A stretch of 64,000 nt of DNA from Escherichia coli (GCF_024700885.2 NZ_CP117016.1); one strand, 5' to 3'; counted from the first letter of the stretch, positions 8,114-42,503 are shown. Program-made: numbers and translations. Notes: a model not told the origin generated them from the letters alone.

Positions 8114-8141
8114 GTGAAAAGAAAAAAGGCCGCAGAGCGGC
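8114..8141. repeat. attL-side direct repeat of the prophage (copy of ihfA terminator stem)
   Basis: tgaaaagaaaaaaggccgcagagcggcc here versus tgaaagaaaaaaggccggagagcggcc at 42477-42503: one indel and one mismatch. Confidence 0.55.
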
Positions 8142-8267
8142 CATAAACACAAGTAAAAATCAATAAGTTAGATAATTATCAAAGACTTACAGACACACAA
8201 AAACACAGCCAACCACAACAAATAACAGGGATGTGGTCACTTTGTGGATCATATCGCCGCCATAAAT

Positions 8268-8708
8268 TTACTTAATAACAGTAACCACAGCCACAAGCAC
8301 GGCCATCGCAGACAGGACAATACCTGTGAGTAACCAAGTCTGATTTGCAAATGATTTCTGAAGTTCAGTACGATGCTCAGCCATCTCAACTTTCAGAGAC
8401 TGGCGTAAATCAGCCATCTCAGACTTCAGGGATTGGCGAGATTCTGCCATCTCAAGCCTCAACCCTTCGCGAATCTCCAGTACATCAGATTTGGTAGCAA
8501 AGGATTCGCTTCTTGTGGTGAGAGTAATCAGGTTGTTTTTGATTTCAGTCACATCACTTTCCAGGCAACTGACCCGCCGTTCAAGGTCGTCATTCATGCC
8601 ATCACCTCCATCATTACCACTTCCTGTTACTTGGTTGTTGGATACATTATAGGCATTCTCTTTCTTTTTTCTGAACCGCGAAATATGTGCAACATTCTCT
8701 GCCATCAC
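8268..8708 (-). CDS. Prophage cargo: coiled-coil protein with C-terminal transmembrane anchor and three 11-residue tandem repeats
   Basis: 146-aa ORF (possibly shorter from an internal Met); EMAESRQSLKS/EMADLRQSLKV/EMAEHRTELQK repeats then hydrophobic tail WLLTGIVLSAMAVLVAVVTVIK; ATGA overlap with upstream gene. Confidence 0.55.
   Translation of the reverse strand: MMAENVAHISRFRKKKENAYNVSNNQVTGSGNDGGDGMNDDLERRVSCLESDVTEIKNNLITLTTRSESFATKSDVLEIREGLRLEMAESRQSLKSEMADLRQSLKVEMAEHRTELQKSFANQTWLLTGIVLSAMAVLVAVVTVIK
8378..8476. repeat. Three tandem 33-bp repeats inside the 8268-8708 gene
   Basis: Copies at 8378-8410, 8411-8443 and 8444-8476, read directly from the sequence. Confidence 0.8.
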
Positions 8709-9067
8709 TTCTCATCACCCTGCTTGCCTACCCAGTTCATAAAGGCCCGGGCCGAGTAACGATGAACAAACCCACATCTGTTACAGGTAAGTCGGAATTC
8801 ATAGTTATGGATATTTTCCCGATCATGTCCCTCATATCCCGGATACCCAGTAAATGGACCGATGTAATCAAGCATAACAAAAGTGCCTAAATCACACTCC
8901 TCAGCAGTTTTCGGCTCAGGCCCCACCTCAACAATATTCGTCAAATACATGTACATATCCGTATCGCCACACGACAAACATTTTTCATTCGTAGACGACT
9001 CATTGAGAAAACGCGCAAAATTATCGAGCGTTGCCATTCTTTTAAGCTCATCTAAATGAAACTTCAC
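8705..9067 (-). CDS. Prophage cargo: Cys-rich hypothetical protein (CLSCGD...CNRCG)
   Basis: 120-aa ORF starting 3 nt after the int stop, same strand, so likely co-transcribed with C-int. Confidence 0.5.
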   Translation of the reverse strand: MKFHLDELKRMATLDNFARFLNESSTNEKCLSCGDTDMYMYLTNIVEVGPEPKTAEECDLGTFVMLDYIGPFTGYPGYEGHDRENIHNYEFRLTCNRCGFVHRYSARAFMNWVGKQGDEK

Positions 9068-9069
9068 TC

Positions 9070-10047
9070 TTAAGCACCTCCTAGTGGATTAAACCTCACC
9101 GCATCCTGCAGGTAATCCGGCGCAAGATGGGCATAAATCATCGTTGTCTGAATCTTTGCGTGCCCCAGAATTTTCTGGAGCGTGAGAATATTGCCACCGT
9201 TCATCATGAAATGACTGGCGAAGGTGTGGCGCAGCGCATGAACAGCCTGGCCGTCAGGAACATCAGGTGCGACCGTTTTGATGACATCGCGAACCAATGA
9301 ATAATCCAGCGTCGGAAACACCAGTTTCCCGCCCCGTTTTTTGATCTTTTCAAACAGGCTTTCAGAAATAGGAACGGTACGGTTTTTGCTGTTCTTCGTT
9401 TTTGAAAAAGTGATTCGACAATGAAGAACACGGCGCTGCTCCAGTACCGCTACCTCGCCCCATCGCGCCCCGGTCGACAGAAGGATTTCGACAGCCAGCC
9501 GTTCATCGGGATTTTCAGCCAGTGCATCCAGCAACTGAACACATTCAGACTTACTCAGATATCCCATTTCGCGCTCGTTAACCTTCATTCCTTTAAGGCC
9601 TTGAACGGGGTTATCGTTAAGAAAATGGCCGGATGAGATGAGTGCGGTAAACATCGCGCTTAACGCCCCAATCTCTCGATTTATGGTGCTGGGCTGTATC
9701 CCCTGCTCTATCCTGGACACACGTAGCTCGGTGAGCATCGTTGTATTAAGTCTATGCACGCACGGGTCATCCATTGCCTCACTCAAGCGCAGCAATTTAA
9801 GGCGCGTGTTATGCCCTGACTTCATTAGCTGGCCGTGGTATTTCCACCACAAGTCAATAAGCACTGACAGAGGACGGCGATCAATAGAGTTTCCTTTCCA
9901 CTCATTGTTATGCTGTTGCGCCAGCACCCACCGCTCATATAAAACTGCATCCGATTTCGTTTTAAATTTTTTGCGAATGCGTTTGCCTTTACGCCCCTCA
10001 GGGCGCATGTCAAGAAGATACCCTCCCGGAATTGATTTTATGCTCAT
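9070..10047 (-). CDS. int: P2-type tyrosine integrase
   Basis: Recognised similarity to P2 Int, including ...LSTGARWGE..., HALRHTFASHF and the C-terminal catalytic Tyr region; start set at MSIKS, the track ORF starts at an upstream GTG. Confidence 0.85.
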   Translation of the reverse strand: MSIKSIPGGYLLDMRPEGRKGKRIRKKFKTKSDAVLYERWVLAQQHNNEWKGNSIDRRPLSVLIDLWWKYHGQLMKSGHNTRLKLLRLSEAMDDPCVHRLNTTMLTELRVSRIEQGIQPSTINREIGALSAMFTALISSGHFLNDNPVQGLKGMKVNEREMGYLSKSECVQLLDALAENPDERLAVEILLSTGARWGEVAVLEQRRVLHCRITFSKTKNSKNRTVPISESLFEKIKKRGGKLVFPTLDYSLVRDVIKTVAPDVPDGQAVHALRHTFASHFMMNGGNILTLQKILGHAKIQTTMIYAHLAPDYLQDAVRFNPLGGA

Positions 10048-10096
10048 TCGTGAAACCCCAGCGTTACAAGACCACCATGCCCCCAGCGTTCCATGA

Positions 10097-10405
10097 TTAG
10101 CCGGGCTGTGTACCAGTCTTGCGGGGCTTTTGAGAAGACGATGTGTTTTCTGGCCCATCAGGGGAGAGAGAGGGACTGATCTGCCCAGCAGCCTCATTCG
10201 TTTTTCCTGTCATAAGCCAATTCATGTACTTAAAAAAGCGAGGGTGATTAACAATCTTGATAAGCACTTCGCCCCCTATGTTTTCAATCCGCCCCGTTTC
10301 ATAACGACGCAAAGTGCCGATAGGCACATCAATCAGGCCGCAAAATTCTTCGCGCGTTAAATCCTCTGATTCACGAATCACTCTAATTTTTTCACCGATA
10401 AGCAT
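10097..10405 (-). CDS. Immunity repressor, P2 C-like HTH protein
   Basis: About 102 aa from MLIGEKI; resembles P2 C (GxPxGTLxxYExG HTH region); divergent from the early operon. Confidence 0.75.
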   Translation of the reverse strand: MLIGEKIRVIRESEDLTREEFCGLIDVPIGTLRRYETGRIENIGGEVLIKIVNHPRFFKYMNWLMTGKTNEAAGQISPSLSPDGPENTSSSQKPRKTGTQPG

Positions 10406-10410
10406 TGACA

Positions 10411-10462
10411 GTGTTCCTATAAGTACACTAAGCTTGCGCACAAGGTGTACTTATAAGTACAC
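10411..10462. promoter_or_regulatory. Putative operator of the immunity switch: 18-bp perfect palindrome plus imperfect upstream copy
   Basis: gtgtacttataagtacac at 10445-10462 is a perfect inverted repeat; gtgttcctataagtacac at 10411-10428 is a degenerate copy; between divergent C and cox-position genes. Confidence 0.5.
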
Positions 10463-41422: not shown

Positions 41423-41623
41423 ATCAACATTCTCATAGAGAGTAGATTTTTACCGTTATCATATATAAACACAAGTCATCTGGTTATCCGAATCACTATA
41501 TTTAAAGCAATTAGGTTTAAACATGCACTCCTGCGCTAACTTTTTGCTCAAGGCGGAGTGGCTGTTGGAGTCTGAGCCAGTACAACTTAAAATAGAACCA
41601 GCACCACGTTAAGGGAGGTCGCT

Positions 41624-41884
41624 ATGTTCCGTTGTCCGCTTTGTGGCGCATCTGCCCGTATCCGCACCAGTCGTCCGGAAAATGATTCAAACACCGTGCG
41701 GCAAAAGTATTACCAGTGTAACAACCTGGAATGCGGCGTATGCTTCTCAACACTGGAAGCTTTCCATAAATTCACATCGAAACACGCCTCCGGCGTTCAC
41801 TCTTCAGATGGTATCCCGTGGCATGAGTTGCCAGCTTCACACAGGGGAAACAATCAGATGAGTTTGCCTTTACCTCAGAATTAA
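41624..41884 (+). CDS. ogr: Ogr/Delta-type zinc-finger late transcription activator
   Basis: MFRCPLCG...RTSR...YYQCNNLECG Cys4 pattern as in P2 Ogr; strong RBS aagggagg. Confidence 0.75.
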   Translation: MFRCPLCGASARIRTSRPENDSNTVRQKYYQCNNLECGVCFSTLEAFHKFTSKHASGVHSSDGIPWHELPASHRGNNQMSLPLPQN

Positions 41885-41944
41885 CAGGCAGAATTGCCGG
41901 AGCAACAAAAAAGCGATAGATTACGCGCGGGTGCCTTTCGGCTG

Positions 41945-42208
41945 ATGGTCGAAGGGAATACCCGAAGGCCAGATGTGGAAAGGCCCCGGAAAACATCTCT
42001 GTTTAACCGAGGCCCTAACCGCATTACCTTGACAAGTGAAAGGTTAGCGCCTCTCCGGAAAAGGAGCAAGTGCTATGTCGCAAAAATCGCTTACGGCCAT
42101 CACGTTCTGCGTGACGGCAATCCTCATCATCTGGATGCTGCACGGTTCGCTGTGCGAAATACGGATGAGCTTCTGGGGAGCGGAGTTTGCGGCGTTCTTA
42201 CAGTGTAA
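41945..42208 (+). CDS. mok-like overlapping reading frame of the hok-type locus
   Basis: ORF in another frame overlapping most of the hok-like gene, as in hok/mok/sok loci; start uncertain. Confidence 0.3.
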   Translation: MVEGNTRRPDVERPRKTSLFNRGPNRITLTSERLAPLRKRSKCYVAKIAYGHHVLRDGNPHHLDAARFAVRNTDELLGSGVCGVLTV

Positions 42209-42215
42209 GCAGTAA
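42075..42215 (+). CDS. Hok/Gef-family type I toxin (small membrane peptide)
   Basis: 46-aa peptide with N-terminal TM helix and SLCEIR motif; RBS aaggag; followed by stem-loop and terminator. Confidence 0.65.
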   Translation: MSQKSLTAITFCVTAILIIWMLHGSLCEIRMSFWGAEFAAFLQCKQ

Positions 42216-42304
42216 GGAAACCGCGACGGGGGAGCAATCCCCCGTCAATCGGTTGCCAGGGTAAGGTCGATAAGGCACCCTATCTCACAGACATGAACAA
42301 CAAA

Positions 42305-42336
42305 CCCGCAGCGTAAAAACTGCGGGTTTTCTTTTT
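42305..42336 (+). terminator. Rho-independent terminator downstream of hok-like gene
   Basis: cccgcag-loop-ctgcggg followed by ttttcttttt. Confidence 0.6.
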
Positions 42337-42476
42337 GGTGCCCTCACCGACTTGAAACAGTGATCAGACTATAAAACAAAGCCCACAATGTAGCGGGCTT
42401 ACTCCCCTCTCCCTCCACTGAATGTGGACACATAGTGGAACAAAGAGAGATAAAACATTATAAATCAATCGGTTAT

Positions 42477-42503
42477 TGAAAGAAAAAAGGCCGGAGAGCG
42501 GCC
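42477..42503. repeat. attR-side direct repeat; also the intact stem of the ihfA intrinsic terminator
   Basis: Near-identical to 8114-8141; here followed by the T-tract ttttt. Confidence 0.55.

Follow-up and report, generated by a model that had tools for sequence, protein, structure and literature searches.

A complete-looking P88-type prophage of the P2 family at the ihfA terminator of Escherichia coli

The genes btuC and ihfA, both encoded on the minus strand, lie 100 bp apart in the Escherichia coli K-12 derivative XL10-Gold. They are about 34.4 kb apart in the E. coli sequence analysed here, a window of 64,000 nucleotides (GCF_024700885.2, NZ_CP117016.1) in which all positions are counted from the first letter. 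There btuC (7079-8059, minus strand) forms the left chromosomal flank and ihfA (42521-42820, minus strand) the right flank of an insertion; gene names are those given by PGAP to the near-identical E-1246 locus (offset +6518), and the btuC flank is collinear with K-12. A preliminary description of the sequence had placed a prophage of about 34.4 kb between these two genes, and alignment with K-12 bore this out, with breakpoints at 8142 and 42479. The insertion is very probably a complete-looking temperate phage of the Peduoviridae (P2 family), of the type represented by phages P88 and Chuche, carrying a distinct P2-type integration and immunity module and integrated by its integrase (Int) at the terminator of ihfA. 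The prophage as such is already known, since it is a further copy of the PP_SE11-4 type, at a known site and with the well-understood P2 integration mechanism.

The junctions define the insertion to the nucleotide. A repeat search found a 25-bp direct repeat consisting of AAAGAAAAAAGGCCGCAGAGCGGCC at 8118-8142, the attL core, and AAAGAAAAAAGGCCGGAGAGCGGCC at 42479-42503, the attR core, which are 96% identical with one mismatch. A three-way alignment showed that the window equals K-12 up to 8142, diverges, and becomes identical again from 42479, and that the K-12 attB is exactly the left arm of attL plus the core plus the right arm of attR; the K-12 btuC-ihfA intergenic sequence contains GACAGTGAAAAGAAAAAAGGCCGCAGAGCGGCCTTTTTAGTTAG. 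The same breakpoints were obtained from 5,426 complete E. coli genomes, the set used for all population comparisons: matches to genomes with an empty site stop exactly at 8142 at the left junction and begin exactly at 42479 at the right junction. The core is present once in the empty site, and the flanking repeats match a single attB in prophage-free genomes, a point on which the preliminary description had made its reading depend. A 25-mer with one mismatch sitting exactly at both homology breakpoints is far beyond chance, and the remaining repeats of 20-25 nucleotides (nt) in the region have no comparable positional meaning. Two earlier figures need correction. The imperfect repeats are real, but their core is 25 bp, and the length of 27-28 bp given previously reflects a leftward extension across a 1-nt indel (GTGAAAAG vs TTGAAAG). 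Likewise, the span 8114-42503 (34,390 bp) marks the right locus but includes both core copies, the spacing between the two copies, 34,361 bp, being the true inserted length. With ARAGORN, neither tRNA nor tmRNA genes were detected in the window; the att site is therefore not a tRNA gene.

The site was empty in 5,120 of the 5,426 genomes, the same right junction was found in 294 of them and the same left junction in 84, which indicates that the DNA next to attL is the more variable among these prophages. This integrase was present in 296 genomes, at full length in 236, and one integrase type maps to one site. The lineage is common, being carried by about 5.5% of complete E. coli genomes, and the present result documents its attB and attP anatomy; of practical use are the correct prophage boundaries (34,361 bp) and a pointer to a rare cargo gene coding for a protein of 384 amino acids (aa).

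The two cores differ at position 16, where attL has C, the host allele, and attR has G, the phage allele; the attL core is thus the K-12 allele, with the hairpin GGCCGC-AGA-GCGGCC and an A-run. The attL core of E-1246 (1600-1624 in the numbering of that locus) has an additional G18A change, and there position 18 also differs between attL and attR, while the SE11 cores (1207-1231 and 37009-37033 in SE11 locus numbering) are perfect 25/25 copies. Provided that the differences pre-date integration, strand exchange would have taken place in core positions 19-25 (AGCGGCC), the rightmost 7 bp or so; alternatively, the core differences may have arisen by mutation after integration.

This core lies in the ihfA terminator. 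The K-12 ihfA transcript ends with UAA-UCUGAUCUAACU-AAAAA-GGCCGC-UCU-GCGGCC-UUUUUUCUUUU, and attB therefore presents, on the ihfA (minus) strand and just past the stop codon, the GC-rich hairpin and U-tract that are features of an intrinsic terminator. RNA folding gave -16.7 kcal/mol (z = -4.7) for the K-12 hairpin, a 6-bp GC stem extended by A/U pairs. Since transcription of ihfA runs on the minus strand, the plus-strand A-run on the left side of the hairpin is complementary to its U-tract. This A-run belongs to the 25-bp core, so that the U-tract is kept at both attL and attR. At attR the ihfA-sense RNA folds with -13.5 kcal/mol (z = -3.9) and continues into the U-tract UUUUUUCUUU; with the phage-derived G the hairpin has a 5-nt loop and a GC stem of 5 pairs in place of 6, and the A-tract and the U-tract are left intact. 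Most likely ihfA still terminates at attR, perhaps slightly less efficiently. The minus strand of attL reads as a hairpin followed by TTTTTTCTTT, was flagged as terminator-like by a consensus scan and folds with -11.6 kcal/mol; hairpin and U-tract survive here in the same orientation, and the upstream A-tract is replaced by phage DNA. This second copy should stop the leftward C-int-orf120-orf145 transcript before it reaches btuC. A promoter-like site of btuC, with its -35 element at 8120-8115 and its -10 element at 8097-8092, consists entirely of retained chromosomal sequence. The overlap of core and hairpin and the predicted attR fold agree with the preliminary description in placing the att core inside a terminator whose function would be preserved. 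Its stated reason, that the T-tract is kept on the right and the tail replaced on the left, was mis-stranded: in the ihfA transcript the plus-strand T-tract becomes the A-tract that precedes the hairpin, and it is relevant only to plus-strand (bidirectional) termination. With a replacement terminator supplied by the phage, transcription of the pheST-ihfA operon would still end after its last gene, and btuC would be shielded from prophage transcription.

We rebuilt attP by joining the phage sides of attR and attL, and took the experimentally annotated attP of P2 (NC_001895) as the reference. Sequence matching located a P arm at 42420-42445 (plus strand), made of two direct Int arm-type repeats, ATGTGGACA and TAGTGGAACA, with 11-bp spacing (P2 P arm, GATGTGGTCAATGTGTGGACG), and, abutting the core at 42463-42475 (plus strand), an IHF consensus, AATCAATCGGTTA, in the position of the annotated IHF site of P2 attP. 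On the P' side a pattern scan gave two more IHF-consensus matches, WATCAANNNNTTR, at 8158-8170 and 8177-8189 (plus strand), which are consensus matches only. These are followed at 8229-8253 (plus strand) by a P' arm with two direct arm-type repeats, ATGTGGTCA and TTGTGGATCA, also spaced by 11 bp (P2 P' arm, CTGTGGACACTGTGTGGACAC). The repeats on both sides fit TGTGG(A/T)(A/C/T)CA, and the distances are close to those of P2, with 33 bp from P arm to core (P2: 35 bp) and 86 bp from core to P' arm (P2: 87 bp). The features of a P2-type attP, paired repeats on both arms and an IHF site between P arm and core, are consequently present as sequence matches.

On the circular phage map this attP is followed by the rest of the integration module, in the order P arm, core, P' arm, two small open reading frames (ORFs), int, C and a cox-like gene. 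The integrase gene (9070-10047, minus strand) codes for a tyrosine integrase of the P2 Int type (phrog_1, E=7e-71), 45% identical in amino acids to P2 Int and 43-48% to the Int proteins of P88 and Chuche; in an alignment with these three, R195, K218, H270, R273, H296 and Y305 are invariant and form the catalytic R-K-H-R-H-Y set. Next to it lies the gene of a C-type immunity repressor with a helix-turn-helix (HTH) motif (10097-10405, minus strand; phrog_147), 41% identical to P2 C, and then, on the plus strand, that of a Cox-like protein (10502-10780), a putative excisionase and Pc repressor that matches phrog_11533 and, more weakly, phrog_575, 'Cox-like excisionase and repressor' (1e-7), and that gave no tblastn match in P2, P88 or Chuche. 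On the right side, P88 and Chuche are homologous to the prophage as far as about 42339, and on the left side from about 10816-10831 onward. The module had no close match among 50,697 phage records, and is 97% identical in nucleotides to that of the SE11 prophage, int alone reaching 99.4%. The two small cargo ORFs between attL and int (8268-9067, minus strand) code for 145 aa, with a coiled coil and a hydrophobic C-terminal stretch, and 120 aa; they belong to phrog_9415 and phrog_4293, both PHROGs with no assigned function, and have no significant Pfam match. Both are absent from P88 and Chuche and present in SE11 and E-1246, a 33-nt tandem repeat (8377-8442) lies in the 145-aa ORF, and in the lysogen the two are presumably co-transcribed with C-int.

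Outside this module the prophage is of the P88 type. Nucleotide identity is 95-96% over 60-75% of the query to P88, Chuche, 520873, PhiR44_2 and Citrobacter phiSM, and megablast covered 71% of 8114-33000 at 95.7% and 63% of 30000-42503 at 93.5%. The criterion of the International Committee on Taxonomy of Viruses for a genus is about 70% nucleotide identity over the full length, and the product of coverage and identity to the P88 type, roughly 60-68%, is borderline against it; gene order is identical to that of P88. We translated the 47 called genes and compared them with P88, Chuche and P2. Of the 47 proteins, 39 had their full length or nearly so when compared with P88, Chuche or both; all those for replication, head, lysis, baseplate, tail and regulation align end to end, mostly at 95-100%, and the sole internal stop is in an accessory ORF at 17517-18092. 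Counterparts in P2 exist for 26 proteins (Q, P, O, N, M, L, X, R, S, V, W, J, I, H, G, FI, FII, E, E', T, U, D, ogr, int, C and A), with 25-73% identity. Furthermore, the PGAP annotation of the near-identical E-1246 copy lists a full P2-family gene set, including 'major capsid protein, P2 family' and 'GPO family'. The essential genes thus appear undisrupted and the phage modules intact, as had been proposed. The label 'P2-like' holds at the level of the family but not for P2 proper, given the P88-type (Xuanwuvirus-like) organization with protein identities of 25-73% to P2, an inverted FI-U block and unmatched lysis genes.

Starting from the integration module, the early genes (10795-12790, plus strand; DUF4761, DUF4754 and small ORFs) are 79-100% identical in amino acids to P88 and/or Chuche, and the 129-aa ORF at 12401-12790 matches Chuche only. 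A gpA-type replication endonuclease (12787-15627, plus strand) is 96% identical to that of Chuche, 88% to that of P88 and 31% to P2 A (aa 98-750). Directly after it, as in P88 and Chuche, comes a plasmid-type partition pair, parM and a parR-like gene (15704-16979, plus strand; PGAP), with 96-99.7% amino acid identity to P88 and Chuche and absent from the SE11 prophage. The non-coding region upstream of Q (18124-18577) is presumed to hold cos and packaging functions; its conservation with P88, Chuche and SE11, about 96%, begins at 18124-18126. The head module is of the P2 type, with portal Q and large terminase P (18578-21375, minus strand; 98-99.7% to P88 and Chuche, 44-47% to P2) divergent from O, N, M and L; all six proteins are 35-47% identical to those of P2, and their genes follow P2 in order and orientation. 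The block at 21530-25084 (plus strand) codes for scaffold O, capsid N, small terminase M, head completion L and tail X. A lysis cassette with holin, M15 endolysin and Rz/Rz1-like spanins (25087-26354, plus strand; PGAP) is 97-100% identical to P88 and Chuche, and its genes gave no tblastn match in P2 at E<=1e-3. The contractile tail and baseplate set is complete (X, R, S, V, W, J, I, H, G, FI, FII, E/E', T, U and D, all with P2 homologues), with tail completion genes R and S and baseplate genes V, W, J and I at 26341-29784 (plus strand), and tail genes U, T, E', E, FII and FI at 33291-38876 (minus strand), inverted relative to P2 as in P88. There is no P2-type T6G slippery site at E/E', so that the frameshift signal must differ, as in P88.

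The gene for gpD, a late control and tail protein (38902-40131, plus strand; phrog_52), has 409 open codons with a likely start at about 39034; it is 98.5% identical to the P88 translation over aa 1-409 and 49% to P2 D, and its homology to both extends along the whole ORF. In E-1246 (32825-33613 in the numbering of that locus) and in SE11, PGAP cuts it to its last 789 nt, annotated as a 262-aa 'VgrG/Pvc8 family' protein, and adds a tiny pseudogene in antisense, which is probably a start-site or annotation artefact. To its right lie an Ogr/Delta zinc-finger late activator (41624-41884, plus strand; PGAP), 98-99% identical to P88 and Chuche and 36% to P2 ogr, with an NCBIfam PRK09678 match below cut-off, and, just inside attR, a Hok/Gef-family toxin gene (42075-42215, plus strand; PGAP), 98-100% identical to the 'MokW-like' genes of P88 and Chuche. 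Neither Sok nor any other phage RNA was detected at the Rfam gathering threshold in 7000-43500 or in the whole window, where the only hit was the Phe leader (46275-46399). A scan of the intergenic regions for late promoters of the form TGT-N12-ACA gave a single match, at 18303, which is uninformative.

The differences from P88 and Chuche are mosaic and fall in four intervals, 8268-9067, 17043-18092, 30655-33286 and 40132-41583. The first contains the ORFs next to attL. The second, a variable accessory region between gpA and Q, holds a partial ead/Ea22-like ORF and a frameshifted ORF, carries PGAP pseudogene flags and an internal stop, and has no homology to P88, Chuche or SE11. The third affects the tail fibre. 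Fibre protein H (729 aa), encoded together with assembly protein G at 29787-32593 (plus strand), has a P88/P2-like N-terminus and a swapped C-terminus, its match to P88 being limited to aa 1-298; the region coding for the H C-terminus and G is 84-90% identical in nucleotides to the side tail fibre and assembly genes (stf/tfa) of mEp332, ev099 and other E. coli phages, and 132-bp tandem units occur in the fibre region at 30314-30808. Next to it is a gene for a hexapeptide-repeat acetyltransferase (32557-33102, minus strand; phrog_2154), with EpsC/CysE/WcaB-like NCBIfam matches that are all below curated cut-offs. The stf/tfa-like fibre end and the acetyltransferase stand in place of the invertase and alternative fibre cassette of P88 and SE11, and no invertase homologue was found in the window. 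Ten cargo and regulatory proteins gave no meaningful defence match with PADLOC; weak matches to LmuB and RmrA were put down to chance or to generic HTH and coiled-coil similarity. The fourth interval contains the 384-aa gene, described below.

Among known prophages the closest relative is that of strain SE11, PP_SE11-4, listed as P2-like, between btuC and ihfA and with a 25-nt duplication (Oshima et al. 2008, Table 2, PMC2608844). It shares with the window the site, the 25-nt core, the integrase (99.4% in nucleotides), the 384-aa gene between D and ogr, and 96-98% nucleotide identity over most of the length; both attL-side ORFs carry protein accessions identical to those of the E-1246 copy. 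It differs in its perfect 25/25 duplication, in having three other hypothetical genes between gpA and Q where the window has parMR and remnant ORFs, and in having kept the cassette of DNA invertase and alternative tail fibre. P88 (NC_026014; Peduoviridae, Xuanwuvirus) and Chuche (PP925824) agree with the window prophage in gene order, with the FI-U inversion, ogr and hok likewise in place, and are 95-96% identical to it in nucleotides across the genes for replication, partition, head, lysis, baseplate and tail, but have another int/C/cox set and attP, no such ORFs between attP and int, no 384-aa gene and another fibre tip; P88 has in addition extra early genes, including a 'derepression protein', that the window prophage lacks. 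Phage phiSM of Citrobacter rodentium (OR565851) also has a P88-type genome, about 95% identical in nucleotides over shared genes, but integrates at pdxB with another integrase module (PMC6456863). With P2 (NC_001895) the window prophage shares the attP layout of P arm, IHF site, core and P' arm, with paired TGTGG(A/T)CA-type repeats at near-equal spacings, and the prophage order attL-int-C-cox...A...Q...D-ogr-attR. The core of P2, AAAAAATAAGCCCGTGTAAGGGAGATTT, and its chromosomal site are, however, unrelated to those of the window, none of the matched window proteins corresponds to P2 B, old, tin or fun(Z), the endolysin is here annotated as an M15 peptidase, the tail operon is split and inverted, and cargo lies between the P' arm and int.

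Together, these data lead us to propose that Int, a tyrosine recombinase, would have recombined the phage attP with a chromosomal attB, a 25-bp sequence that takes in both hairpin and U-tract of the intrinsic ihfA terminator, and that IHF would help, by analogy with P2, by binding the consensus site beside the core. The arrangement points to a P2-style intasome in which Int would bridge arm and core sites across an IHF bend, and the C/Cox-like pair would set directionality, again as in P2. The phage would bring its own copy of the hairpin and U-tract (the phage allele, with a 5-bp and not a 6-bp GC stem), so that integration would regenerate the ihfA terminator at attR and leave a second copy at attL. 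The roles of IHF and Cox, the terminator function of attL and attR, the position of the crossover and present-day inducibility are all points that we infer.

Several observations weigh against an intact and active phage of this kind. PGAP flags three accessory pseudogenes (12155-12292, 17043-17414 and 17517-18092) and a short gpD; no match to the cos of P2 or 186 was found when up to 4 mismatches were allowed, cos being annotated in none of the phage records used; the Cox assignment draws on the weak phrog_575 match (1e-7); about 60 of the 296 integrase copies are truncated, which speaks of decay in relatives; neither a homologue of the P88-type 'derepression protein' nor a LexA box was found in the prophage; and the attR/ihfA hairpin (42488-42503) was not listed by the consensus terminator scan. 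The omission by the scan is probably due to stem extension through flanking A/T pairs, which uses up the T-tract, because the explicit attR fold is strong (-13.5 kcal/mol). P2 itself is not known to be UV-inducible, and SOS induction of this prophage may likewise fail; with a P2 C-like repressor (41%) and no visible SOS link, mitomycin C may not induce the phage even if it is functional, so that mitomycin C induction may be uninformative here.

These observations would also suit a cryptic, non-viable prophage that merely looks complete and has been inherited vertically, to which the three pseudogenes, the short gpD call, a cos that was not located by similarity to P2 or 186, the lack of an SOS-linked derepression gene or LexA box, and the related copies with truncated int in O111:H8 and other genomes all lend some weight. 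We nevertheless regard it as unlikely. The pseudogene calls concern accessory regions or the same 72-aa ORF that is found in the viable phage Chuche, gpD is open over 409 codons and 98.5% identical to that of P88, and every essential protein is of full length. The genome looks complete by comparison with viable relatives, P88, which is chemically inducible, and phiSM, which is spontaneously active (PMC6456863). Furthermore, in a comparison of window positions 6519-43519, the E-1246 prophage differs from that of the window by 2 internal single nucleotide polymorphisms and 1 attL-core difference over 34.4 kb, while 23 of 1,599 positions (1.4%) differ in the btuE-btuC flank; a near-identical prophage beside a divergent flank favours recent transfer over long residence, and suggests recent horizontal spread or else recombination in the flank. 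The P2-type Int (45%), the C repressor (41%) and the attP geometry could point to P2 itself, or to a phage of the genus Peduovirus, at a secondary P2 attachment site; this is most improbable, since identity to P2 proteins is only 25-73%, the lysis genes and cox are unmatched by tblastn, P2 B has no counterpart, FI-U is inverted, parMR is present, the core is unrelated to the P2 core and the nearest genomes are of the P88 type (Xuanwuvirus). Short direct repeats border many kinds of mobile element, and the 25-bp repeat might then be a target-site-like duplication made by a transposable or non-phage island, but we give this the least credence of all: the empty site already holds one copy of the core, which is no duplicated stretch of arbitrary target DNA, the same core is used in about 300 genomes, the element has a P2-type tyrosine integrase, arm sites at P2 spacing and a full set of virion genes, and the PGAP annotation of the E-1246 copy contains no transposase. 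A satellite was also considered and rejected.

The 384-aa cargo gene (40262-41416, minus strand), inserted between D and ogr, is the only non-trivial extra of an otherwise known prophage type. It lies in a low-GC stretch, a 2-kb interval over the gene having 37.5% GC, and occurs in 19 of the 5,426 E. coli genomes, being present in SE11 and absent from P88 and Chuche. The protein had no PHROG, PADLOC, NCBIfam or Pfam match (for Pfam, with the single sequence and with a 37-member alignment), no match to a PDB sequence profile and no convincing PDB fold match; AFDB50 returned uncharacterised proteins only, and a literature search by protein accession or locus tag gave nothing. Its homologues form 109 clusters, all 'hypothetical', in a widespread family found in Proteobacteria and Firmicutes, with the invariant motifs CSCMDW, D..E..QLH, R-x5-H (FGAHP) and FASWP. 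The family turns up at varying cargo sites of mobile elements, here between D and ogr, in phage phi458 in the tail-fibre/invertase region, and in Edwardsiella between an Endonuclease_1 gene and traN, in an F-type conjugative-transfer cluster resembling an integrative conjugative element; the Photobacterium homologue is three genes from a Card1 gene. The gene is a reasonable candidate for an exclusion or defence function. The more specific idea, that this single gene is an anti-phage or exclusion system not described before, perhaps a HEPN-like nuclease, is tentative and rather doubtful; if true, the D-ogr junction would be a further cargo hotspot of P2-family phages.

Outside the prophage the window is collinear with K-12 (XL10-Gold), apart from three differences. 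About 147 bp are absent relative to K-12 between pheS and the Phe leader (46255-46258), about 210 bp are absent downstream of katE (63227-63278), and the last 720 bp of the window, on the chbG side, are 89.6% identical to K-12.

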